A DNA stretch of 64,000 nt, taken from contig CAWJGT010000025.1 in the NCBI GenBank assembly GCA_963842525.1, forward strand, positions 1-64,000, in the 5' to 3' direction. The translations under genes were made by a program, and so were the position numbers. This document shows, piece after piece, positions 1-10,397 of this stretch (position 1 is its first letter; every line of letters starts with the position of its first letter). The notes beneath the pieces were generated by a model. The model was not told where the DNA came from. It ran no database searches and was given only the letters and a program-made list of their open reading frames with translations. The stretch comes from an uncultured Holophagales bacterium. GTDB lineage: Bacteria; Acidobacteriota; Thermoanaerobaculia; Multivoradales; UBA5704.

Positions 1-125
1 TGGGGAAGCTGCGGACGGGCTTGTGGGGGTTGCGGAGAAGTTGCGGCGGCCGGGAAAATTCCGCAGTCCCTCCACAGGGATTCAGGGCTTCTCCTGCACA
101 GTCTTTTCACAGCTTTTCCAGGCCC
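1..125. promoter_or_regulatory. Cluster of degenerate DnaA boxes downstream of dnaA (probable part of oriC)
   Basis: Several TTATCCACA-like words (TGCGGAGAA 31-39, CCTCCACA 69-76, CTTTTCACA 103-111) immediately 3' of dnaA; position typical of a dnaA-dnaN origin segment. Confidence 0.5.
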
Positions 126-141
126 TCTCTTATCTGGGGAG

Positions 142-1440
142 TCAACCGAATTGGTGCTCGAGCCCCTGGAGCACGCAGTCGAGATCGGCGTCCCTTGCAC
201 GCCGGTCCTCGATGTCGCGGACCGAGTACATGACCGTGGAGTGGTGCTTGTCGTTGAAAAGCTTGCCGATCTCGGGATAGGAGAGGTCCGTCAGCTTCGC
301 GCAGCAGGTACATGGCCACCTTGCCGCGGGAAGACGATCTGCTGCGAGTTGCTCTTGCTCTTGATCTCCGAGACCTTCAGGTCGTAGTGGCCGGCCACGA
401 CCTTGATGATCTCGGCCGGGTCGGCTTCTTCCCCTCCTCGGGAGGATGTCCTTGAGCGTCTCCTCGGCAAGGTCGAGCGACAGCGGCTTGCCGGTCAGCG
501 AGGAGAAGGCGATCACCCGGTTGAGCAGCCCTTCGAGCTCGCGGATGTTCGATTTGACCTGCTGGGCGATGAACTCCGCCACATCGTCGGGGAGGTTGAC
601 GCTCTCGGCTTCGGCCTTGCGCTGCGAGGATCGCCACCTTGGTCTCGAGGTCCGGCGGCTGGATGTCGGCGATCAGGCCCCACTCGAAGCGGCTGCGCAG
701 CCGCTCCTCCAGCGTCGGGATGTTCCGCGGCGGGGAGTCGGTCGAGAGGACGATCTGCTTCTGGCTCGTGTAGAGCGTGTTGAAGGTGTGGAAGAACTCC
801 TCCTGCGTCCGCTCCTTGTTGGCGAGGAACTGCATGTCGTCGATCAACAGCACATCGATCGTCGCGGTAGCGCTCGCGGAACTGGCGGCATGCGGTCGAA
901 GCGGATGGAGTTGATCAGCTCGTTGATGAAGTGCTCGGCCGACCAGGTAGAGGACCCGGAGCGTTGCGGGCTGCTGCGCAGGATCTCGTGCCGATGGCAT
1001 GCATCAGGTGCGTCTTGCCGAGCCCTACGCCGCCGTAGAGGAACAGCGGGTTGTAGCTGTGGGACGGGTTCTCGGCCACCGCCTTGGCCGCGGCGTGGGC
1101 GAACTGGTTGGACTTGCCCACGACGAAGGTCTGGAAGATGTACTTCGGATTGAAGTGCCCCGGCGCCGGCACCTCGTCGGTGGACACCTCCTTGTCGTCT
1201 TCCTCCAACAAGAAGTGAACCTCAAAGGGGCGGCCGCTGAGGCCGGCCAGAGCCCGGTCCACGACGGAACGGTAGCTCTCTTCGAGCGTGTGCAGGAAAC
1301 GGGAATTGGGAGCGAGAAGGATCAGGCGGCCCTGCCCCTCCTTGCGTACCTTCAGGGGGAGGAACCAGGTCGCGAACTCCTCGGGATCGAGCTGCTTTCT
1401 GGAGCTGTTTCTGGAGGAGCGACCAGAGAGACTGGGGCAT
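142..1440 (-). CDS. dnaA: Chromosomal replication initiator DnaA (split by several frameshifts, probably sequence errors)
   Basis: Motifs spread over ORFs 1222-1440, 915-1262, 377-1000, 142-582: [54 protein letters not shown]. Confidence 0.95.
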
Positions 1441-1478
1441 GGGACCTCGGACGCGTGAAGCTAGTCAAATTCCGCAGG

Positions 1479-1499
1479 AATTCCACAGGGTGTGGAAAA
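1479..1499. promoter_or_regulatory. Inverted pair of DnaA boxes upstream of dnaA
   Basis: AATTCCACA (1479-1487) and TGTGGAAAA (1491-1499, reverse complement TTTTCCACA). Confidence 0.65.
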
Positions 1500-1565
1500 C
1501 CCTAACCCTGGAGGGTGGGGTCGTCAGTGCAGTGGAGACAGACGCTACTCGCTACGACTGGACGC

Positions 1566-1594
1566 ATCATAGCAACACCCATTCGTGCCCGCAA
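1566..1594 (-). promoter_or_regulatory. Putative sigma-70 promoter of dnaA
   Basis: Minus strand TTGCGG-17 nt-TATGAT with extended -10 TG (TGCTATGAT). Confidence 0.55.
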
Positions 1595-1833
1595 CCCCTC
1601 CGGCAGGGTGACTCCTTAGAAAGAACTTTTGGTGCGGTGTCCATGGGTCTACAAACTCTCTTCCCTTCCCAGGGGCAGCATATCCTACGCCTCCCGCGTG
1701 GTGAGTCTTGTAGAAATGCTTCGGGATCGAAGGAAGGATTTACACGAGAGAATATCTTCGAGATCCTCGCGAACCTCTTGCTTCAAGAAGATAAGCTGCT
1801 CGCAACAAAAGACTTACTCCTTTCATCCGAAAG

Positions 1834-1849
1834 TGGTACGTCTATTGCA
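1834..1849 (+). promoter_or_regulatory. Sigma-54 (-24/-12) promoter, unit 1
   Basis: TGGTAC-GTCTA-TTGCA matches TGGCAC-N5-TTGCW. Confidence 0.8.
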
Positions 1850-1859
1850 GAGAAGGAAG

Positions 1860-2073
1860 GGCAAGTTCATAGAGCGTTCAGGGGGAGGTGCCGTCCAGCC
1901 AAACGGAAGTTCCTGCCATCTCCAAGAGATCCTGAGATCTCGTCAACTTCTTTGATATCCCTTTCCCTCTCCCCTTCTACAGGGGTAGATCCCACAACCA
2001 ACCGTCCCAACTCAGGACCTCCCCCCTAACGCTCGGCTCAAATCTCCGGGAGCGAAAGCTCCCGTTTCCTTTT
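1860..2073 (+). ncRNA. Putative sigma-54-dependent structured small RNA, copy 1 (family not recognised)
   Basis: Promoter, closing stem 1872-1889/2017-2034 (16 of 18 bp), conserved CCCCT-loop-AGGGGTAGA and CCAACCG motifs, terminator; 5' end estimated. Confidence 0.7.
2047..2073 (+). terminator. Intrinsic terminator, unit 1
   Basis: CGGGAGC-GAAA-GCTCCCG followed by TTTCCTTTT. Confidence 0.8.
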
Positions 2074-2093
2074 AGTGCCCCAAGGAGAGGACC

Positions 2094-2109
2094 GGGCACG
2101 GCCATTGCA
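2094..2109 (+). promoter_or_regulatory. Sigma-54 (-24/-12) promoter, unit 2
   Basis: GGGCAC-GGCCA-TTGCA. Confidence 0.8.
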
Positions 2110-2119
2110 GTCTGAGAGA

Positions 2120-2315
2120 AGGCATACAGGAGAATGACCGAGGGGGAGGTTCCACCAGCCAACGACCAAGCCTACCGTATCCCGAGATCTCTAGATCTCA
2201 CCCTCTCATCCGACCTGCCGAATCCCCCTTCAACAGGGGTAGATCCACAAGGACCAACCGGAGAGATGGGCTTCCCCCCGTGACGCTCCCAGCCCCGCTG
2301 GGAGCGTTTTCCTTT
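2120..2315 (+). ncRNA. Putative sigma-54-dependent structured small RNA, copy 2
   Basis: Promoter, closing stem 2142-2151/2269-2278 with G.U pairs, shared motifs, terminator; 5' end estimated. Confidence 0.7.
2283..2315 (+). terminator. Intrinsic terminator, unit 2
   Basis: ACGCTCCCAGC-CCC-GCTGGGAGCGT followed by TTTCCTTT. Confidence 0.8.
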
Positions 2316-2350
2316 GAGGGGGAGGAGTGGGAGAGAAGGAATGAGAAACC

Positions 2351-2366
2351 AGGCACGGTTGTTGCA
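2351..2366 (+). promoter_or_regulatory. Sigma-54 (-24/-12) promoter, unit 3
   Basis: AGGCAC-GGTTG-TTGCA. Confidence 0.8.
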
Positions 2367-2376
2367 GGGGTTAGAT

Positions 2377-2570
2377 TCAGGAAATGACGAGGGGGAAGCT
2401 CCCACACACCAAAAGACTTCCCACCTAAAAACGAGGCCCTAGTGCCTCACCTTTGCAAAACATCCTCCTGATCCCCTATTGACAGGGGTAGAGCCAAATA
2501 AGCCAACCGGAGAGATGGGATGCCCCCCTCTTAAAGCCCTCTCCCCTTCGGGGAGGGGGATTTTCTTTTT
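2377..2570 (+). ncRNA. Putative sigma-54-dependent structured small RNA, copy 3
   Basis: Promoter, closing stem 2389-2404/2516-2530, shared motifs, terminator; 5' end estimated. Confidence 0.7.
2537..2570 (+). terminator. Intrinsic terminator, unit 3
   Basis: CCCTCTCCCC-TTC-GGGGAGGGGG followed by ATTTTCTTTTT. Confidence 0.8.
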
Positions 2571-2640
2571 CAGCAGACCTCTCTGCGCGTCGTGCTGAAA
2601 TCGCCATTCTTGCCTGCCAAATTGGCCGACCCGAGATAGA

Positions 2641-3786
2641 ATGACGCGGGTGCGGCATGCCCAGAACCTCCTCGCCTGGTTCGACAGGCACCGCCGCGAC
2701 CTGCCCTGGCGCCGAACGCGCGATCCCTACCGCATCTGGCTCTCGGAAGTGATGCTCCAGCAGACGCGCGTGGAGGTGGTGCTCCCCTATTACAAGAGGT
2801 TCCTGGAAAAATTTGCCACCGCCCAGGCCCTTGCGCAGGCAGACCTCGAAGAGGTCCTCGCCCTCTGGTCGGGCCTGGGCTACTACCGGCGAGCCCGGCA
2901 GCTCCATGCCGCGGCGCGGCGGGTCGCCGAGCTCGGCGGGTTCCCGCGGACCGTCGAGGGGCTGCGCGAGCTGCCGGGGATCGGGCCCTACACGGCGGCG
3001 GCAGTGGCGAGCATCGCCTTCGGCGTCCCCGAGCCGGTGCTCGACGGCAACGTCGAGCGCGTCCTCTCCCGCTGGCTGGCTCTCGACGCGGACTCGAAGG
3101 GGAGCGCCGCCCGCAAGGCTCTCCTGGCTGCGGCTTCGTCCCTGCTCGATCCGGAGCGCCCGGGCGACAGCAACCAGGCCCTCATGGAGCTGGGCGCTAC
3201 CCTCTGCACCCCGCGCCGCCCCAAGTGCCTCCTCTGTCCGCTCTCCACCGGCTGCCGGGCCGCGGCCGGGGGGAACCCCGAGCGGTACCCGCCGCCGCGG
3301 GTGAAGCGCGAGCCGGAACGGCACCGGCTGCTGGTCGCCGTGGTCGAGGACGACCGCGGCGTGCTGCTCTTCCGGCGGCCCGACGACAGCGAGCTCCTGG
3401 CCGGAACCTGGGAGCTGCCGTGGGTGCCCGTTCCCGCGGATGGCTCCCTGGAGCGGGCGGAGACGGACCTGGGCGCGCGGTATGGCGGCAGGTGGAGCCT
3501 GCGGGAGCAGGAAGCGGCGGTCCGCCACGGGATCACCTACCGGAATCTCGAGATCGCGGTGCACCGGGCGGAGCTGGCTGAGCGGCCGAAAGGCGGGCCG
3601 GTGCGCCATGGCTCGGAGGCTCCGGAGGCGGCGGCGGGGTGGTTCGACGAGGGGCGCCGGGCCGGGCTGCCGCAGTCGTCGCTGGTGGGGAAGGTGCTCG
3701 GGAGCCTGGCGGAGGGAGGAACGCTCAGGCGCGCTTCCGCGGGCGGTCCACCGGCCAGGAGATCCCGGTCCCGCCGGCGAGGATGA
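2641..3786 (+). CDS. mutY: A/G-specific adenine glycosylase
   Basis: RDLPWR, IWLSEVMLQQT, WSGLGYYRRAR, LPGIGPYTA, C-X6-C-X2-C-X5-C Fe-S motif. Confidence 0.95.
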   Translation: MTRVRHAQNLLAWFDRHRRDLPWRRTRDPYRIWLSEVMLQQTRVEVVLPYYKRFLEKFATAQALAQADLEEVLALWSGLGYYRRARQLHAAARRVAELGGFPRTVEGLRELPGIGPYTAAAVASIAFGVPEPVLDGNVERVLSRWLALDADSKGSAARKALLAAASSLLDPERPGDSNQALMELGATLCTPRRPKCLLCPLSTGCRAAAGGNPERYPPPRVKREPERHRLLVAVVEDDRGVLLFRRPDDSELLAGTWELPWVPVPADGSLERAETDLGARYGGRWSLREQEAAVRHGITYRNLEIAVHRAELAERPKGGPVRHGSEAPEAAAGWFDEGRRAGLPQSSLVGKVLGSLAEGGTLRRASAGGPPARRSRSRRRG

Positions 3787-4735
3787 ACCAGGTGATGATC
3801 TTGTCGTCGATCTCGCGCAGCCGGCCCGCCACCAGGTTGCAGAGGATCGAGAGCAGACGCAGGGAGGAGACCTTGTTGATGTCGAGGATCCCCTCCAGGA
3901 CGTCGCGCGGGATGGCGAGGACGACGGCTCCCTCGTCATGCGCCTTGGCGTCGGCCGAGCGCGGCGCGTTGTCGATGAGCGCCATCTCTCCGAAGTAGCC
4001 GCCGCGTTCGAGGAAGGCGAGGGCCTCCTCGCCCGCCCCCGGGATGAACTTGCTGATCATCACGCGCCCCTCGAGCACGATGTACATCTCGTAGGCCGTC
4101 TCCCCCTCGCGGAAGATGACCTGGTTGGGGGCGAACTTCTTCTCCTTCGAAAGGGTGGAGAGGAAGTTGATCTCCAGGTTGGAGAGCTTCTGTTCCTGGA
4201 AGAGCTTGCGCTTGACCGCCAGGTCGACGCGGAACTCCCCTCCCGGTTGGGCGTGGGTGATCGGATCGCCGGGCGGTGGACCGCCGGTCTCGGCGAAGAA
4301 CTGGCTGAGGTTGGCGTTCGTCTGGCGGAGCTTCCCCGAGAGGCTCTTCCAGAAGGTCCAGTAGAGGGCGAGTTGGAAGCCCGGGTCGCGCTCCTGCTGC
4401 GCCGCGAGCGCCGCCTGGTCGAAGGCGACGATCTCGGTCTCGGCGGTGGTGACCGCCGAGCCGGTCCGCGGCCCGTGGTCGACGATGGCGGTTTCGCCGA
4501 AGAGATCGCCGGGACCGAGGCTGGCCAGGGAGAACAGGCCGTAGGGGGTCTTCCTCTGGATGCGGATGCCGCCGCTGCGGATCATGTAGGCGCCGCGAGA
4601 CGCCTCCCCCTCCTGGACCACCAGGGTGTCGGCCGGATGCTGGACGAGGGAGGCGCACCCGGCGAGCTGAGACAACTGCTCATCGCTGAAGTGGGAGAAG
4701 AGATCCCACTGCCGGAAAAGTCCCTGGAGGCTCAA
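3725..4735 (-). CDS. Tandem cyclic-nucleotide-binding domain protein
   Basis: Two cNMP cassettes (GDLFGETAIV..GPRTGSA; GGYFGEMALID.APRSADA); TTG start inferred. Confidence 0.8.
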   Translation of the reverse strand: MSLQGLFRQWDLFSHFSDEQLSQLAGCASLVQHPADTLVVQEGEASRGAYMIRSGGIRIQRKTPYGLFSLASLGPGDLFGETAIVDHGPRTGSAVTTAETEIVAFDQAALAAQQERDPGFQLALYWTFWKSLSGKLRQTNANLSQFFAETGGPPPGDPITHAQPGGEFRVDLAVKRKLFQEQKLSNLEINFLSTLSKEKKFAPNQVIFREGETAYEMYIVLEGRVMISKFIPGAGEEALAFLERGGYFGEMALIDNAPRSADAKAHDEGAVVLAIPRDVLEGILDINKVSSLRLLSILCNLVAGRLREIDDKIITWFILAGGTGISWPVDRPRKRA

Positions 4736-4742
4736 GGTCCGC

Positions 4743-5420
4743 CTATTGTAGCGGAAGCGGACCGGAGTCGGTGAGCAGGAGCTCGGCGAGGCGGCTGGCC
4801 GGAGCCGAGGCCTGGCCTTCGCGGCGCGCCCATGCGGCCCGGTCGGGATCGCCGAAGGCGGCCCACAGGGCGGCAGCCTGGAGGAACCACTCGGCGAAGA
4901 GGGGCTCGCCGCTGCCCAGGTCGGAGCGCAGCTTGCTCTCGAGAGGCGCCTCGACCTCGTCGAAGAGGCGGCGGGCCGCCGGAGGATTTCCGCGCCGCAG
5001 CTCGAGCCAGGCGCGGTGGAGGTTAATGGACTCGGCGAGGTCGGAGCGGTTGGCGGCCGCCGTGGCGAAGGCCTGCTCGGCCGCGGCGTAGTCGCCCCCA
5101 TAGGAGGCGACGAGGCCGGACTCCAGCCAGGCCTCCCCGTCCTCCGGATCGTCGGCGAGGATCCGCCGCAGGAGCTCGCGGGAGGTTTTCAGATCGAGCA
5201 GGTGCTTGGCGGCTACGGCCGCAGCGTACAGCTCGTCCCGCCGGGCCCGCCCCTCCGTCCGCGCCGCCGCCAGGGCCGCCGCGAAGTCTCCCCGCCCCAG
5301 CGCTTCCATCGCCGGGCTCCCCTCCGACCGCCGCAACACCAAGAACAGCCCGATCGACGCCGCGGCGCCAAGGAGGGCCAGGAGGAAGATGAAGATCCCT
5401 TCGAAAGTGGGCATGGTCAT
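4743..5420 (-). CDS. Membrane-anchored TPR-like protein
   Basis: N-terminal TM helix, helical repeats (DPEDGEAWLESG...YAAAEQAF). Confidence 0.65.
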   Translation of the reverse strand: MTMPTFEGIFIFLLALLGAAASIGLFLVLRRSEGSPAMEALGRGDFAAALAAARTEGRARRDELYAAAVAAKHLLDLKTSRELLRRILADDPEDGEAWLESGLVASYGGDYAAAEQAFATAAANRSDLAESINLHRAWLELRRGNPPAARRLFDEVEAPLESKLRSDLGSGEPLFAEWFLQAAALWAAFGDPDRAAWARREGQASAPASRLAELLLTDSGPLPLQ

Positions 5421-5499
5421 CCGGGCTCGGCGCCATGTTAGCCGATCTACGCGCCGCCGTCAGAGGGTGTCTGGGGCGGGGCCGAGGTCAAGGAATCCC

Positions 5500-5830
5500 G
5501 GGAAAACGTCTCGCGGACCGTGGTCCTTAAAGCATTGACTGCAGGAAACGACCCGCGGACCCGGGTCCCTCAAGTACTGACTACAGGAAATGGGCCGCGG
5601 ACCGCGATCCCTCAAGCACGGAATAAAGCAAATGAGCCGCGGACCCGGGTCCCTGAAGCATTGACTACAGCAAACGTCGCACGGACCCGGGTCCTTGTAG
5701 CAGGGACTAAAGAAAAAGTCACGCGGACCGCGGTCCCTCAAGCATCGACTGTAGGAAACGGGCCGCGGACCGCGGTCCCTCAAGCACGGACTAAAGGACG
5801 CGGCACGTTGACTGCGGTCCTTTAGGCATG
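5500..5830. repeat. Degenerate 42-bp tandem repeat, about 8 copies, with palindromic core
   Basis: CGCGGACC(C/G)(G/C)GGTCCCTCAAGCA-like unit starts at 5512, 5554, 5596, 5638, 5680, 5722, 5764, 5806. Confidence 0.9.
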
Positions 5831-5892
5831 ATCCCGAGACCGTGGCGCGTTGTCCCGGGTCCATGGGCAGCGTCCCGATCTCGGGTCCTTCC

Positions 5893-6462
5893 TCACAGCA
5901 GCGGGAGCTGCACCGGCCCGAGGACGTGCTCCCAGACCTCCTGCTCGACCGTATCGAGCCAGGATGCGCGGCTGTCGGGGGCGAGGTGGAGGGCGGAGAT
6001 GCCGCGGCCGTCGAGCTCGCGGGCGAGGCGCTCCTCCACGGCGAGCTGGAACGCCGGATTGGCCGAGCGGATGCCGTCCGGGTTTGGCTGCTCCAGGACC
6101 GGCACGTGCACCAGGAGGTCGTAGGTGCGCATCCAGGACTCCACGAGCGTCTCCAACGCCTCCTGCCGGCCGGCGGAGAGCAGGAGGTAGACATAGTTGT
6201 CGAGGACGCTCCGGTCGCAGATCACCGCCGGATAGCGGGACTGGGCCACCAGCTCCTCGGTGATCTGGGCGTGGAGGATCCACGACTGCGCGGCGACCGA
6301 GGTCTCCTCGTTGATCGGCAGCGGACAGCGCCGCGCCACTTCATGCACAACCTCGACCGCCACGTCCCGAACCTTGAGGCGCGCGGCGAGACCGTAGCAG
6401 AGGGTGGTCTTCCCTACGCCATGGCTGCCAATGAAGGCAATCTTGTACCGCGGAGCGCTCAC
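5893..6462 (-). CDS. AAA_28/NadR-Ttd14-like P-loop ATPase or kinase
   Basis: KIAFIGSHGVGKTTL, EVAR, ICDRSVLDNYVY. Confidence 0.8.
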   Translation of the reverse strand: MSAPRYKIAFIGSHGVGKTTLCYGLAARLKVRDVAVEVVHEVARRCPLPINEETSVAAQSWILHAQITEELVAQSRYPAVICDRSVLDNYVYLLLSAGRQEALETLVESWMRTYDLLVHVPVLEQPNPDGIRSANPAFQLAVEERLARELDGRGISALHLAPDSRASWLDTVEQEVWEHVLGPVQLPLL

Positions 6463-7760
6463 GGACGTTTCTCCTCGAGCTCCTCTTCCAGAATCGTGAG
6501 CGCCGCATCGAGCAGCGGCTCAGGGATCAGGAGCGGCGGTACGATCTGGGCCACCCGCCCCTCCGGCCCGCCGGCAAGCAGGAGGAGCCCTCGCGCGAGC
6601 GCCTCCGAGGTGAGCCGCTTGGCGAGGTCCTTGGAGGCCAGCTCGACGCCCCAGAGGAGCCCCCGCCCGCGCACGTCCGAGACGGCCGGGAAGCGTTCCC
6701 GCCAGCCCGCCAGCCGCTCGGCCACTCCGGCGCCGAGGCGAACGGCGCGCGTTGTCAGATCCTCCTCTTCAAGGATGTCGAGCACGGCCAGGGCGGCGGC
6801 GCAGGCCAGGGGGTTGGCCACGAAGGTGGCGGTGTGGCGCGCCTCGCCGGGGGTCTCCCAGCAGCGGAAGAGGTCGCGGCGGGCGATCACGGCGGCGATG
6901 GGCAAGCCTCCGCCGAGCGCCTTGCCGCAGCAGAGCAGGTCCGGCCGCACCCCGTCGGCTTCGACCGCGAAGAGGGTCCCGGTGCGGCCGAAGCCGGTGA
7001 AGACCTCGTCCGCGATCAGCAGGGCGCCGACGCTCTGGCAGGCTTCGGCGAGGGCGGGAAGCCAGCCGGCAGGCGGCACCAGGACGCCCTCCCGGCCGAC
7101 GATCGGCTCGACGATTACGGCGCCGATCTCTTCCCGGTCGAGGACGGCTGTGATTTCGCCGGGATGGCAGCCGTAGGGGAGCCGGCGGACGTGGCCGTGG
7201 AGATGGGCGGCGAAAGGCGTGCGGAACTCGTCCCGCGAGGTGACGGCCAAGGCGCCCAGCGTCATGCCGTGGTAGGAGGGCTCGAAGGCGAGGACGCCGG
7301 GCCGGCCGGTGGCGGCGAGGGCCGTCTTGAGCGCGATCTCCACGGCTTCGGCGCCGGAGATGGAGAAGAAGACCTGGGCGTCGTCCACCGGCGCGAGGCG
7401 CGCCAGGCGTGCGGCCAGCTCGACCCGCAGCGGATGGGCGTGGACGTCCCCCAGCCCATGGAGGAGCCGGCCTGCCTGCTCGCGCACCGCCTCGACGACC
7501 CGCGGGTGCGCGTGCCCCACCGCGGCCACGCCGAAGGCGGCGGTGAGGTCTATATAGATATTGCCGTCGACGTCGCGGACGTTCGCTCCCCGGGCCTCCT
7601 CCCAGAGGAGCGAGGGAGCCGGTGGATCGCCGGGTCCACCTGGAGCCAAGGTGTTGATGCCGGGGGCTTCGACCGCGGCGAGGCACCGGGACAGCTCGCG
7701 GGCGCGGGGCCCCGGCGGCGGGACGACCATGCGGGGGAGGAGCTCGCCGAAGGCGGTCAC
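6459..7760 (-). CDS. Class-III PLP aminotransferase
   Basis: DVDGNIYIDL, SGAEAVE, LIADEVFTGFGRTG, GKALGGG, VRGRGL. Confidence 0.9.
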   Translation of the reverse strand: MTAFGELLPRMVVPPPGPRARELSRCLAAVEAPGINTLAPGGPGDPPAPSLLWEEARGANVRDVDGNIYIDLTAAFGVAAVGHAHPRVVEAVREQAGRLLHGLGDVHAHPLRVELAARLARLAPVDDAQVFFSISGAEAVEIALKTALAATGRPGVLAFEPSYHGMTLGALAVTSRDEFRTPFAAHLHGHVRRLPYGCHPGEITAVLDREEIGAVIVEPIVGREGVLVPPAGWLPALAEACQSVGALLIADEVFTGFGRTGTLFAVEADGVRPDLLCCGKALGGGLPIAAVIARRDLFRCWETPGEARHTATFVANPLACAAALAVLDILEEEDLTTRAVRLGAGVAERLAGWRERFPAVSDVRGRGLLWGVELASKDLAKRLTSEALARGLLLLAGGPEGRVAQIVPPLLIPEPLLDAALTILEEELEEKRP

Positions 7761-8341
7761 ATCTCGCGCCGGCCGGCCAGCGACCGCCCCAGGGTCACCT
7801 CGTCGGTATACTCGATGTCGCCGCCGACGGGCATGCCGAAGGCGAGGCGGGTGACCCGCACGCCCCGGGGCTTGAGCAGGCGGGCCAGGTAGAGGGCCGT
7901 GGCCTCGCCCTCGACGTTCGGGTTGGTGGCCACCACGACCTCCTCAATCCCTTCGAGGCGGGCCAGCAGCCCGGCGATGGCTAGGCGGTCGGGGCCGATC
8001 CCGCGGTGCGGCGAGAGGGCTCCGAGCAGGACGTGGTAAAGGCCGTGGTATTCCCCCGTCCGCTCGATGGGCTCGATGTTGAACGGCTCCTCGACGACGC
8101 AGATACGGATGCGGTCGCGCCGCTCGTCGTCGCAGTAGCGGCACGGGTCGATGGCGGTGATGGCATTGCACACCGAGCAGTGGAAGAGCTTCTCCTTCAC
8201 CTCGACGATGGCCTCGGCGAGGGCTTGGGCGTCGGTGGCGGGCACCTTGAGGAGATAGTGGGCGAAGCGCGTTGCGGTCTTGGGCCCGATGCCCGGCAGG
8301 CGCGCGAGCTCGCCGATCAGTCGGGCCAGAGGGTCGGGCAT
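7757..8341 (-). CDS. recR: Recombination mediator RecR
   Basis: LPGIGPKTA, C4 zinc finger, ATNPNVEGEATA. Confidence 0.97.
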   Translation of the reverse strand: MPDPLARLIGELARLPGIGPKTATRFAHYLLKVPATDAQALAEAIVEVKEKLFHCSVCNAITAIDPCRYCDDERRDRIRICVVEEPFNIEPIERTGEYHGLYHVLLGALSPHRGIGPDRLAIAGLLARLEGIEEVVVATNPNVEGEATALYLARLLKPRGVRVTRLAFGMPVGGDIEYTDEVTLGRSLAGRREM

Positions 8342-8364
8342 CGGTCGGACATCGAAGCAGTGGA

Positions 8365-8661
8365 TCAGAACAGGCCGGGCAGGCTCGACGCCATCGCGCC
8401 CATCTTGCCCTGCATGGTCTCTTCGACCTTGCGGCCCGCCTGGTTGACCGCGGCGACGATGAGGTCCTCGAGCATGGAGAGGTCGGATGGATCGATGGCT
8501 TCAGGGTCGATCTTGACGGAGACGAGCTGCTTGTGGCCGCTCATCTGGACGGTGACCATACCGCCGCCGACGCTGGTCTCCACGACGAGCTGGTTCAGCT
8601 CGCGCTGGAGCCGCTCCTGCATCTCCTGGGCCTGTTTCATGAGTTGACGCATGCTGCTCAT
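8365..8661 (-). CDS. ybaB: YbaB/EbfC nucleoid-associated protein
   Basis: MKQAQEMQ...GGGMV...LEDLIVAAVN; between dnaX and recR. Confidence 0.95.
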   Translation of the reverse strand: MSSMRQLMKQAQEMQERLQRELNQLVVETSVGGGMVTVQMSGHKQLVSVKIDPEAIDPSDLSMLEDLIVAAVNQAGRKVEETMQGKMGAMASSLPGLF

Positions 8662-10397
8662 CGGGTTGACTCCTCCCTGGAACGTCCGTGCTCTTCGACG
8701 GTCTCGACGCGCCCACCGAAGATATCAAGGAGCGCCTGGACCTGGGGCAGCTCGCTCACCTTGGCGAGCTCCACGGCGGGCTCGGCCGATCCTGCCCCCG
8801 CGGCCCCCGTGGCCCCCATGGCAGATACCGCCTTGCGGGTGCCGCCGCCGCGGACCAGCCGCCACGCCGTGCCCGCTCCCCAGACCGCGGCCAGCGCCTC
8901 CTCGACGGTCTGCTTGCTCGCCGCCTGCTGCAGGCGCATCTCCAGCAGGCCGTCGTCCGGCGGCGAGGCGATGTGCAGCGCGCCATCGGCGAAGACCAGG
9001 TCCGCCTCCGCTAGGAGGGCCGCCAGGGGCTGCCGGCGCTTGCTGATCTCTTCCAGGAACGCCTGGACCTGGTCCTGCTCGCTCAGCCCCTGCCCGCGCG
9101 GCCGGGCCTCGGCGACCGGCGGCGGGTCCGGTGTCCTCGCAGCCGGGGCCGGTGGCGAAGCCGGCGGTGGAACGGTATTTGCGGGCGCGGGTGCGGGTGC
9201 GGCGGAGCGGGCCGGCGGCTGGGCAGCGGGCGCCGGCCGCGCCTGGCGTGCGGGCTCCTGCGGCGGCGGATTCACGCCGGCGCCGGCCAGCAGGTCCTCG
9301 ACCCGGGTCAGCTTGGGCAGCTCGGCGGCGCGCAGCCAGGCGATCTCCACGGCCAGGGCCCCGGTCTCGCTGCGGCGGACGACCGGCTCGCTGGTGAGGA
9401 GCTGATGGAGCAGCCGCAACAGGTTCTCGTAGCCGGCCGCGCGCGCGGTGGCCGCGAGCGCCTGCGCCTCCTCGCCGGGAAGGTCGATCTGGTCGGGGTC
9501 GCCCCCCATGCCGAGGTGGAGCGCGTCGCGGCAGAAGGCGAGGAACTGCCCATACACGTGGCGCGGGTCCCACCCCTCGTCCTCGATCCGGCGCACGAAG
9601 CCGCAGACGGCCGGGCCGTCCCCCTGCAGGACCGCTTCGAGCAGCCCCTGGAAGAGGGCGGTGTCGAGCCCGCCGAGCAGGCGGATGGCGTCCTCGTCGG
9701 CGATCGTGCCGGAGCCGAAGGTGGCGAGCTGGTCGAGCAGGGCGACCGAGTCGCGTACGCTCCCTTCGCCGGCGCGGGCGATCAGCCGCAGGGCCGTGTC
9801 GCTCGCCGTGATCGCCTCGGCCGCGCAGATGGCGCGCAGGTGGGCGGCGAGGATCTGCGACGGCACGCGGCGGAAGTGGAACTCCTGGCAGCGCGACAGG
9901 ATCGTCGCCGGTACGGCGTCGATCTCGGTGGTGGCGAAGATGAAGACCAGGTGCGGCGGCGGCTCCTCGACGATCTTCAGGAGCGCGTCGAAAGCCTGGC
10001 GCGACAGGCGGTGGACCTCGTCGAGGACGACCACCTTGTAGCGGTCGCGCGCCGGGCCGTACTTCAGGCTCTCGGTCAGCTCGCGGACCTGCTCGACCTT
10101 GGAATAGGTGGCGGCGTCGACCTCGATGACGTCGAGGTCCGAGCCGCGGGTGATCTCGACGCAGGCGGTGCACTCGTTGCAGGGATCGGCGGCCGGCCCG
10201 CGCTCGCAGTTGAGCGTCTTGGCAAGGACGCGGGCGGCGGTCGTCTTGCCCACGCCGCGGATGCCGGAGAAGAGATAGGCCTGGGCGATGCGGCCTTCCC
10301 GCAGGGCATTGCGCAGGGCCGTGACGATCGGCTCCTGGCCGACGAGGCTGGAGAAGCTCTGCGGGCGCCACTTGCGGGCGAGAACCTGGTAGGTCAT
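8658..10397 (-). CDS. dnaX: DNA polymerase III subunit gamma/tau
   Basis: YQVLARKWRPQ, GIRGVGKTT, DEVH, TILSRC. Confidence 0.97.
   Translation of the reverse strand: MTYQVLARKWRPQSFSSLVGQEPIVTALRNALREGRIAQAYLFSGIRGVGKTTAARVLAKTLNCERGPAADPCNECTACVEITRGSDLDVIEVDAATYSKVEQVRELTESLKYGPARDRYKVVVLDEVHRLSRQAFDALLKIVEEPPPHLVFIFATTEIDAVPATILSRCQEFHFRRVPSQILAAHLRAICAAEAITASDTALRLIARAGEGSVRDSVALLDQLATFGSGTIADEDAIRLLGGLDTALFQGLLEAVLQGDGPAVCGFVRRIEDEGWDPRHVYGQFLAFCRDALHLGMGGDPDQIDLPGEEAQALAATARAAGYENLLRLLHQLLTSEPVVRRSETGALAVEIAWLRAAELPKLTRVEDLLAGAGVNPPPQEPARQARPAPAAQPPARSAAPAPAPANTVPPPASPPAPAARTPDPPPVAEARPRGQGLSEQDQVQAFLEEISKRRQPLAALLAEADLVFADGALHIASPPDDGLLEMRLQQAASKQTVEEALAAVWGAGTAWRLVRGGGTRKAVSAMGATGAAGAGSAEPAVELAKVSELPQVQALLDIFGGRVETVEEHGRSREESTR

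Follow-up and report, generated by a model that had tools for sequence, protein, structure and literature searches.

The Qrr1-4/5 RNAs of Vibrio are paralogous small RNAs (sRNAs) that depend on sigma-54 and LuxO, show dosage effects or partial redundancy, and act by Hfq-dependent pairing. CrcZ, CrcY and CrcX of Pseudomonas and GlmY and GlmZ of Enterobacteria are also sigma-54-dependent; they act wholly (CrcZ, GlmY) or partly by protein titration through repeated motifs or a shared fold, and homologous pairs among the Crc and Glm sRNAs have divided roles. CbrB is reported to control sigma-54 promoters. RsaE/RoxS-type sRNAs of Firmicutes carry several C-rich single-stranded motifs, which could pair with the G-rich ribosome-binding sites of many mRNAs. 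For Pxr of Myxococcales, the published account describes a lineage-restricted RNA of 108 nt with two or three stem-loops, an apparent sigma-54 promoter and a fixed intergenic place between nla19, a sigma-54 activator gene directly upstream, and a NADH dehydrogenase gene (PMC5568312). Pxr is single copy in most species, Cystobacter has three tandem paralogues with their own sigma-54 promoters, paralogues within a genome are more diverged than orthologues between species, and a long and a shorter processed form occur (PMC5568312). Here we describe three repeated units in a stretch of 64,000 nucleotides (the window) from an uncultured Holophagales bacterium of the Acidobacteriota (GenBank assembly GCA_963842525.1, contig CAWJGT010000025.1, positions 1 to 64,000, forward strand). 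The three repeats are paralogues of a single small non-coding RNA gene that duplicated long ago and diverged, and every copy has a promoter and a terminator to itself.

The units lie at positions 1872-2034, 2142-2278 and 2389-2530, all on the plus strand, in the gap of about 1.2 kb that runs from the divergent dnaA to mutY. In all three, a sigma-54-type promoter is followed by a structured body of about 150 nt and an intrinsic terminator. With promoters and terminators included, the gene limits of the array are about 1835-2570, wider than the bodies at 1872-2530. Identity among the units is just 66% per aligned column, flanks counted. Judged by sequence, they would encode a sigma-54-dependent regulatory sRNA with tandem paralogues, the kind being known and the RNA family new.

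Like Pxr, the acidobacterial RNA has sigma-54 promoters, lineage restriction, a fixed locus and tandem, individually promoted paralogues. Unlike Pxr, it is about 150 nt long, is clamped end to end, has dnaA and mutY as flanks, shows no activator gene nearby in the loci surveyed and belongs to another phylum; no sequence or Rfam-level similarity between the two was seen. As size, fold, flanks and phylum differ, the likeness is one of gene organisation and not of family membership. With Qrr it shares the presence of several paralogous sigma-54-type sRNAs, but Qrr genes are dispersed, are about 100 nt long and carry a long invariant seed, whereas the present RNA has no such seed and no Rfam match. 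The motifs of the Crc and Glm RNAs are A-rich (CrcZ) or a specific stem-loop (GlmY/Z), in contrast to the C-rich words found here, and homology was not detected. RsaE/RoxS-type RNAs are not sigma-54-dependent, lack an end-to-end clamp and carry CCCC/UCCC in loops; no homology to them was seen either. 6S RNA is similar in size and in its paired ends and differs in fold, and its model gives no match.

Acidobacteriota are abundant in soil, and nearly all that is known of this order comes from metagenome-assembled genomes. To our knowledge, no regulatory sRNA has been characterised experimentally in the phylum, and the full-text literature, in a coverage that leaves out subscription journals, yielded no paper on this RNA. 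The locus is not a new kind of system. It offers an entry point in the form of a covariance model, a sigma-54 input with a candidate activator site, old paralogues that can be compared and hints from soil RNA libraries. It would also add a second, independent example to that of Pxr, in which a sigma-54 sRNA has multiplied into tandem paralogues with a promoter each, and so be useful for studies of paralogue divergence.

An end-to-end closing stem and a CCCC/GGGG hairpin had been recognised in all three units by a sequence-only reading of this DNA, and both were confirmed in the sequence and in single-sequence folds. In unit 1 the minimum free energy (MFE) fold reproduces the closing stem P1, in which GAGCGTTCAGGGGGAGGT (1872-1889) pairs with ACCTCCCCCCTAACGCTC (2017-2034) by 7 + 9 = 16 pairs across 18 positions; the stability z-score is -3.47, and none of 200 shuffles was equally stable. 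In unit 2, GGGGGAGGTT (2142-2151) pairs with GGCTTCCCCC (2269-2278) over the ten base pairs already described, three of them G.U, and the helix is one pair longer (C2152-G2268), spanning 2142-2152/2268-2278 (z = -2.92; 0/200 shuffles). P1 of unit 3 (2389-2403/2517-2530) is made up of GAGGGGG/CCCCCTC, found earlier together with an inner pairing, plus GCTCCC/GGGA(T)GC; the fold (z = -1.55; 14/200 shuffles) is weak taken alone. The CCCCT/AGGGG hairpins, here P3, are at 1971-1985 (arms 1971-1975/1981-1985, loop TCTAC), 2225-2239 (2225-2229/2235-2239, TCAAC) and 2473-2488 (2473-2477/2484-2488, ATTGAC), and their coordinates and loops agree with the earlier ones. A further common hairpin, P2, is GAGATC/GATCTC in units 1 (1926-1931/1936-1941) and 2 (2184-2189/2194-2199) and GAGGC/GCCTC in unit 3 (2433-2437/2444-2448), which is a compensatory change relative to units 1 and 2 within the window itself. 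The features listed by the sequence-only reading thus stand; its list lacked P2, the three sigma-54 promoters and the three terminators, and hence the true gene limits.

To follow the fold beyond the window, 117 homologous units found across the order by a covariance model of the body alone were aligned (alignment A4). The consensus is a three-way multiloop of P1 (12 pairs), P2 (6) and P3 (5) joined by long single strands. The closed ends with C/A-rich unpaired parts suggested earlier are thereby retained, and the rod shape suggested with them is not. Over the closing stem and both hairpins, standard pairs occupy 93.4% of 2658 cells, in an alignment that is fitted to the model and favours structure somewhat, and whose related sequences are not independent. 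Changes on both sides occur in 22 of 23 pairs (110 cells in total), and none of 500 shuffles reached any of five pairing and covariation measures. When the 3' partner was slid by 1-3 columns, pairing fell to 42-73% and double-change cells to at most 34. Covariation is clearest in P2, where columns 76-105 hold UA 85, CG 21, UG 9 and GC 1 and columns 75-106 hold AU 100, GC 11 and GU 3. The inner pairs of P1 behave in a similar manner (columns 26-220: UA 51, UG 43, CG 14, GC 6; columns 27-219: UG 47, UA 39, CG 13), and P2 and inner P1 pairs rank top in mutual information. The fifth P3 pair (U-A) is unpaired in 57 of the 111 cells with letters; as it is lost in many units, P3 is effectively CCCC/GGGG. 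The outer 8 bp of P1 barely vary, GC being present in 101-113 of 117 units at four pairs. Read from the opposite strand, the frequent G.U pairs would turn into A.C mismatches, which ties the fold to an RNA read from the plus strand, as had been argued from the three units. Selection thus acts on the structure of a plus strand RNA, as had been proposed, and covariation supports the fold.

RNAalifold on the raw MAFFT alignment returned 13 pairs only. This low count is due to the G and C runs of P1 lying out of register, and the structure was therefore set by hand for the first covariance model (R1). Two further pairings were left out. A helix CCUACC/GGUAG beside P3, judged by eye in alignment A2, holds in many units and fails in many, and is not among the top covarying pairs. 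For the pairing ACCCUCU/AGAG(AU)GGG, covariation amounts to a block-wise difference between the paralogue types (columns 113/119 with 210/219), and the pairing is absent beyond the family; it may be a lineage-specific alternative pairing.

The sigma-54 promoters are the clearest clue to regulation. The -24/-12 signature GGYACG-N4-TTGCW has three matches in the 64 kb against 0.09 expected, all on the plus strand. They occur, as GGYACG-N4-TTGCA, at 1835, 2095 and 2352, 37-47 nt ahead of each closing stem. The promoter of unit 1 is GGTACGTCTATTGCA (1835-1849, predicted start near 1859-1861), that of unit 2 GGCACGGCCATTGCA (2095-2109, near 2119-2121) and that of unit 3 GGCACGGTTGTTGCA (2352-2366, near 2376-2378), all on the plus strand, the predicted starts being placed by the usual spacing from the sigma-54 -12 element. 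Since the 117 units were picked by a model of the body alone, conservation of promoter and terminator in them is not circular. GGYAY-N5-TTGCN is found 26-55 nt upstream (median 36) in 110 of the 117 and in none on the opposite strand; by group the strict motif is present in 93/97 units of the family and 17/20 of other families, and, of the seven units that lack it, five show a variant that differs by one base, for instance TGGCACGGCGCATGCA. A single rpoN is present in the genome, in which strict TGGCAY-N5-TTGCW occurs 28 times against 3 for the reversed control.

Upstream of the array, the inverted repeat TGTAGAAAT-N20-ATTTACAC (1709-1745, plus strand) is a candidate enhancer (upstream activating sequence) at -126 from the GG of the first promoter. 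As the degenerate pattern TGTAGAAAT-N19-20-ATTTGTAC it is present in 24 of 44 loci of the family and in 0/19 loci of other families; its distance ahead of the GG of the first promoter is 131-136 nt in 19 of those 24 (full range -95 to -144); in this genome it occurs at the RNA locus alone. Its distance fits, and we infer that it is the enhancer of a dedicated sigma-54 activator. The repeat is also within the upstream region of dnaA and could serve the divergent dnaA promoter, which leaves this assignment a putative one.

Each unit ends in an intrinsic terminator on the plus strand. That of unit 1 (2047-2075) has the stem CGGGAGC/GCTCCCG (2047-2064) followed by TTTCCTTTT, that of unit 2 (2282-2316) a 12-pair stem (2282-2308) followed by TTCCTTTG, and that of unit 3 (2537-2570) a 10-pair stem (2537-2559) followed by ATTTTCTTTT. 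The region has 7 terminator-like sites versus 1.4 in shuffles. A simple test for a hairpin and T-run downstream is passed by 75 of 115 homologues. The units are non-coding: their longest open reading frames (ORFs) have a median of 24 aa, ATG occurs 0.74 times per unit, and conservation of a start was not seen. The predicted 5' leaders between start site and P1 (1860-1875, 2120-2140 and 2377-2388) are purine-rich, many homologues having for instance AGACAGGAAA. Prior to trimming, these leaders might base-pair with the C/U-rich linkers.

To determine the distribution of the RNA, 47 units, each behind a sigma-54 motif, were cut from the loci of 22 relatives and aligned (A2), and R1 was built on them with three hand-set helices; a second model, R2, was built from the 117 order-wide units, and the large searches were run with the stricter filters of Infernal. 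In the window, R1 scores 90.6 bits (E 1.3e-20) on unit 1, 121 bits (E 4.1e-28) on unit 2 (2133-2286) and 104.2 bits on unit 3 (2383-2536). It matches 90 of the 92 family genomes and, order-wide, 109 of 151, a count which takes in one unpublished genome (G216). The order matches span all 12 families sampled, with low frequencies in two of them (f7, 4/21; f8, 1/21); genus g18 of f8 gave 0/19 in the order search and 0/21 in a further one. There was no match by R1 in 114 genomes of the class outside the order and none by R2 in 147 genomes of the phylum outside it. BLAST alone found the RNA in 21/24 genomes of the family and 0/16 from other families of the order; the confinement to one family seen by BLAST reflects its limit of sensitivity, since the covariance model finds the RNA in the other families. 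Public records with the type-B core motif are metagenome-assembled genomes labelled Thermoanaerobaculia, Acidobacteriota, Holophagales or Acidobacteria gp7. Rfam 15 at permissive thresholds gave 3 chance-level matches only in 1400-2700, the best at 17.3 bits versus a 49-bit cut-off, and nothing at the RNA position in six homologous loci of other families; the weak rows for RAGATH-25, ctRNA and AsdA lie on terminators or in dnaA and were set aside as chance. The RNA is an uncatalogued, well-supported family, found among the genomes searched in one order of soil Acidobacteriota.

Within the family there are 1-3 copies per genome, typical for each genus, and the matches listed for a genome share a contig and are a few hundred bases apart, except at duplicated contig ends such as those of the present genome (G000). 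Two types can be told apart. In type A (unit 1), P1 is extended (AGCGU...ACGCU) and P3 is preceded by a CU-rich tract, which in unit 1 is CCCTTTCCCTCTCCCC (1959-1974, plus strand), present as had been reported. In type B (units 2 and 3), ACCCUCU follows P2 and GGAGAGAUGGGG precedes the 3' arm. Type A is first in the array, with type B behind. In a maximum-likelihood tree of the 117 units, which has no support values and about 158 columns and is therefore indicative only, first-in-array copies of six genera (g1, g4, g5, g6, g10, g11) mostly cluster together, the exceptions being one first copy placed elsewhere (L024) and one f7 unit nested inside. Second and third copies form their own cross-genus groups. 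As copies group by array position across genera, the duplications are older than the genera and the copies have stayed distinct since, and this old duplication explains how the same fold comes with divergent sequence. In several f5 genomes (L088, L148, L147/L144) two RNA copies are at separate loci and not in tandem, and the L088 copy is without a recognisable sigma-54 motif and without the P2 hairpin.

Twenty loci from eleven other families were examined for the place of the RNA, with gene counts that are lower bounds as ORF choice was crude. R1 finds the RNA in all 20. mutY is just downstream on the same strand in nine and dnaA or dnaN on the other side in eleven, and one or both flanks are present in 13, the usual place of the RNA being between dnaA and mutY; seven loci (L083, L088, L092, L095-L098) have neither. 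A gene for a two-cyclic-nucleotide-binding-domain protein follows mutY in the window (3725-5101, minus strand) and also in L080, L082, L084, L086, L087, L091 and L099, and an AAA_28 protein is present too in L080, L081 and L091. The common neighbour genes indicate that the gene block around the RNA is conserved.

The closing helix is G/C-rich (GGGGGAGGUUCC paired with GGAACCUCCCCC), and its arms GGGGAGGUUCC and GGAACCUCCCCC persist order-wide, as does ACAGGGGUAGAnCC, which is the P3 3' arm with its flank. The clamp encloses about 100 nt of C-rich, G-poor linkers with CCNACC/CCANCC words, ACCCUCU or the CU-rich tract, together with the conserved ACAGGGGUAGAUCC. In the three units of the window, C makes up 32-38% and G 17-19% of the unpaired cores. 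Throughout the order, single-stranded CCNACC/CCANCC words follow P1 and precede both P2 and the 3' arm. The mean number of CCNACC words is 2.68 per unit compared with 0.58 in mononucleotide shuffles (about 4.6-fold), with three or more in 67 of 117 units, and that of CCANCC is 2.77 per unit. P1 also holds GGAGGU paired with ACCUCC, the letters of a Shine-Dalgarno/anti-Shine-Dalgarno duplex, the 3' end of the 16S rRNA being GGAUCACCUCCUUUCU in this genome. As a separate observation, a 13-base perfect complement to the 16S 3' end stands right before ATG (AAAGGAGGTGATCCCATG) at three genome sites on the minus strand (C3:748993, C11:48968 and C11:49075); these are unusually long Shine-Dalgarno matches, and two of them are about 100 bases apart.

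Three RNA-labelled runs from two studies and one DNA run were compared with the window as contigs. No run held more than 0.17 of the sampled words; such small shares carry no conclusion on habitat or strain, and parts left uncovered are not evidence of absence. Contigs of the RNA libraries lie on unit 1 from stem to stem at 95-99% identity: 1876-2030 (X11), 1889-2032 (X12) and 1889-2035 (X5). On unit 3 a contig of X5 covers 2392-2528 and has on both sides letters which we take to be Illumina adapter ends; with adapter on both sides it is a whole insert of 137 nt. A relative's contig in X11 ends in GCCUCCCCC and then in adapter letters. Contigs of the DNA run cover the spacers instead (2046-2177, 2209-2358, 2590-2700). 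The RNA-library contigs, which are restricted to the P1-to-P1 bodies, hint weakly at production of the RNAs in soil and at their accumulation as species of about 140-155 nt trimmed to P1. The purine-rich leaders are not covered by the RNA-library contigs.

The best explanation, to which we give a probability of roughly 0.45, is that the units are tandem sigma-54-induced sRNAs that act in trans, their linkers pairing with G-rich sites of mRNAs. Each gene would be read on the plus strand from its own sigma-54 (RpoN) promoter to its own intrinsic terminator. Transcription from sigma-54 promoters depends on an ATP-driven enhancer-binding protein; the RNAs should therefore be silent until induced, and the triggering of a single activator, probably bound at the inverted repeat that lies some 130 nt ahead of the first promoter, would turn on all three together. 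The transcript would fold into the three-way multiloop, in which P1 clamps the ends and P2 and P3 are short hairpins, and would be trimmed back to P1 to accumulate at about 140-155 nt. The C-rich linkers would be the seeds, pairing in trans with G- or purine-rich sites, for example ribosome-binding regions, of several mRNAs, possibly with the help of Hfq; divergence between the paralogues of types A and B would concern their targets or their dose. The parts of this scheme that we infer are activation through an enhancer-binding protein, the trimming back to P1 and trans action via the linkers. The Hfq gene is present and, along with the terminators and the linkers that differ between paralogue types, counts in favour of pairing.

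Several observations weigh against this scheme. The word CCNACC does not complement GGAGG, the Shine-Dalgarno core to be expected from the 16S 3' end. At 6-7 nt the single-stranded words that are conserved are short, and they recur, which a protein-binding array fits at least equally well, and conservation across the order revealed no long contiguous invariant single-stranded seed. The near-invariant outer P1 suggests sequence-specific recognition and not a mere clamp. No target emerged, and the duplexes predicted for each unit with the leaders of dnaA and mutY were no better than those with shuffled targets (z -0.86 to +0.96). No enhancer-binding-protein gene was found beside the RNA in the window or the 20 loci of other families, among which L092, a weak match, alone has a response-regulator receiver nearby. 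If the RNA is trimmed to P1, the terminator U-tail used by classical Hfq-dependent sRNAs would be removed. Neither ends nor depth nor strand can be proved from contigs, and DNA may be carried over into RNA libraries.

Some of these points are accommodated at least equally well by an RNA that titrates a protein, that is a sigma-54-induced decoy with three to five CCNACC/CCANCC sites for a C-rich-binding protein or Hfq. It would work in the manner of CrcZ/CrcY, RsmY/Z or GlmY, with extra copies raising its capacity. The sponge-like and anti-Shine-Dalgarno roles put forward in the sequence-only reading likewise stand as hypotheses. A short word repeated in variable context, three or more times in 67 of the 117 units, C-rich and G-poor linkers, a nearly invariant P1 sequence, amplification in tandem to 1-3 copies by genus and the hint that a compact body accumulates without the terminator would all suit such a decoy. 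We nevertheless regard it as doubtful: no candidate protein was found in the analysis, the words differ from the A-rich Hfq/Crc motifs, and the linker differences between types A and B suit different targets better than simple dosage. Titration of the CsrA type is unlikely, as CsrA (PF02599) was not found in this 96.4%-complete genome; there are few GGA loops, and the repeated words are C-rich and not GGA as in CsrB/RsmY/Z-type RNAs. A variant that we consider improbable is a decoy built of Shine-Dalgarno/anti-Shine-Dalgarno look-alikes and C-rich strands, in which the near-invariant P1 would mimic the Shine-Dalgarno:anti-Shine-Dalgarno duplex; tracts resembling the anti-Shine-Dalgarno are present in the linkers (ACCCUCU after the hairpin, CCUCCU in unit 3). 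If it held, a signal sensed through sigma-54 would flood the cell with up to three RNAs, which would compete with ribosomes at ribosome-binding sites genome-wide or titrate a factor for C-rich RNA or the 16S 3' end, such as Rho or a 30S maturation or initiation factor. The result would be a global brake on translation or termination and not a gene-specific regulator.

A local role has very little probability in our view. Sigma-54 transcription away from the dnaA upstream region could activate a nearby origin or the dnaA promoter, or read-through could make the array a leader controlling mutY. The dnaA-mutY position, kept within the family and in 13/20 loci of other families, a perfect DnaA box at 1491 and a slight GC skew, whose sign is minus towards C5 and plus towards C25, would agree with it. 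Each unit, however, has its own terminator, mutY has its own promoter-like site, a single perfect DnaA box does not make an origin, the RNA is placed elsewhere in some families (L088, L092, L096, L097), and selection on RNA structure and sequence would be needless for a pure effect of transcription. A 6S-like RNA, mimicking an open promoter to sequester RNA polymerase holoenzyme, had been put forward in the sequence-only reading on grounds of comparable length and paired ends. It is rejected, since a canonical 6S gene is found elsewhere in the genome (C12:84103-84290, minus strand, 73 bits versus a 46.4-bit cut-off); in addition, Rfam 6S (RF00013) has no match in 1400-2700 at E up to 10, and the fold is a multiloop with two small hairpins and not a long rod with a central bubble. 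It is hardly more credible that the units are not RNA genes at all, being a DNA repeat (a mobile-element relic or protein-binding array) or small protein-coding genes. The P2 arms do form a DNA palindrome, GAGATC..GATCTC, and ORF 1439-2029 overlaps unit 1. That ORF is without a Pfam match and the units are without conserved ORFs. The G.U pairs and the compensatory changes are specific to one strand, every unit lies between a promoter and a terminator, and there is one locus per genome, kept through the order.

On the downstream side of the array, the mutY-like gene (2641-3786, plus strand; Pfam HhH-GPD, NUDIX_4 and HHH) lies outside the RNA genes and is preceded by a sigma-70-like promoter match at 2614-2642. 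On the upstream side, dnaA (142-1440, minus strand) is broken over several frames, with the Bac_DnaA domain in ORF 377-1000; in the present copy it is spread over at least four overlapping ORFs. Positions 1-8849 of the window recur, reversed and at 98.5% identity, at the start of contig C5 (C5:1-8836). This second copy was not accepted as a true duplication, nor the broken dnaA as real, as it looks like an error-rich 8.8-kb overlap of two contig ends. Just upstream of dnaA, TTCCACAGG is followed by the perfect DnaA box TGTGGAAAA (1478-1499, box at 1491), and the GC skew changes sign weakly at the C5/C25 junction, from slightly negative on the C5 side to slightly positive on the C25 side. With one perfect box and a weak skew change no origin is claimed; the DnaA box region could serve dnaA autoregulation or be part of an origin. 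Two or three TTTCCACA boxes are present at the matching place in relatives from other families.

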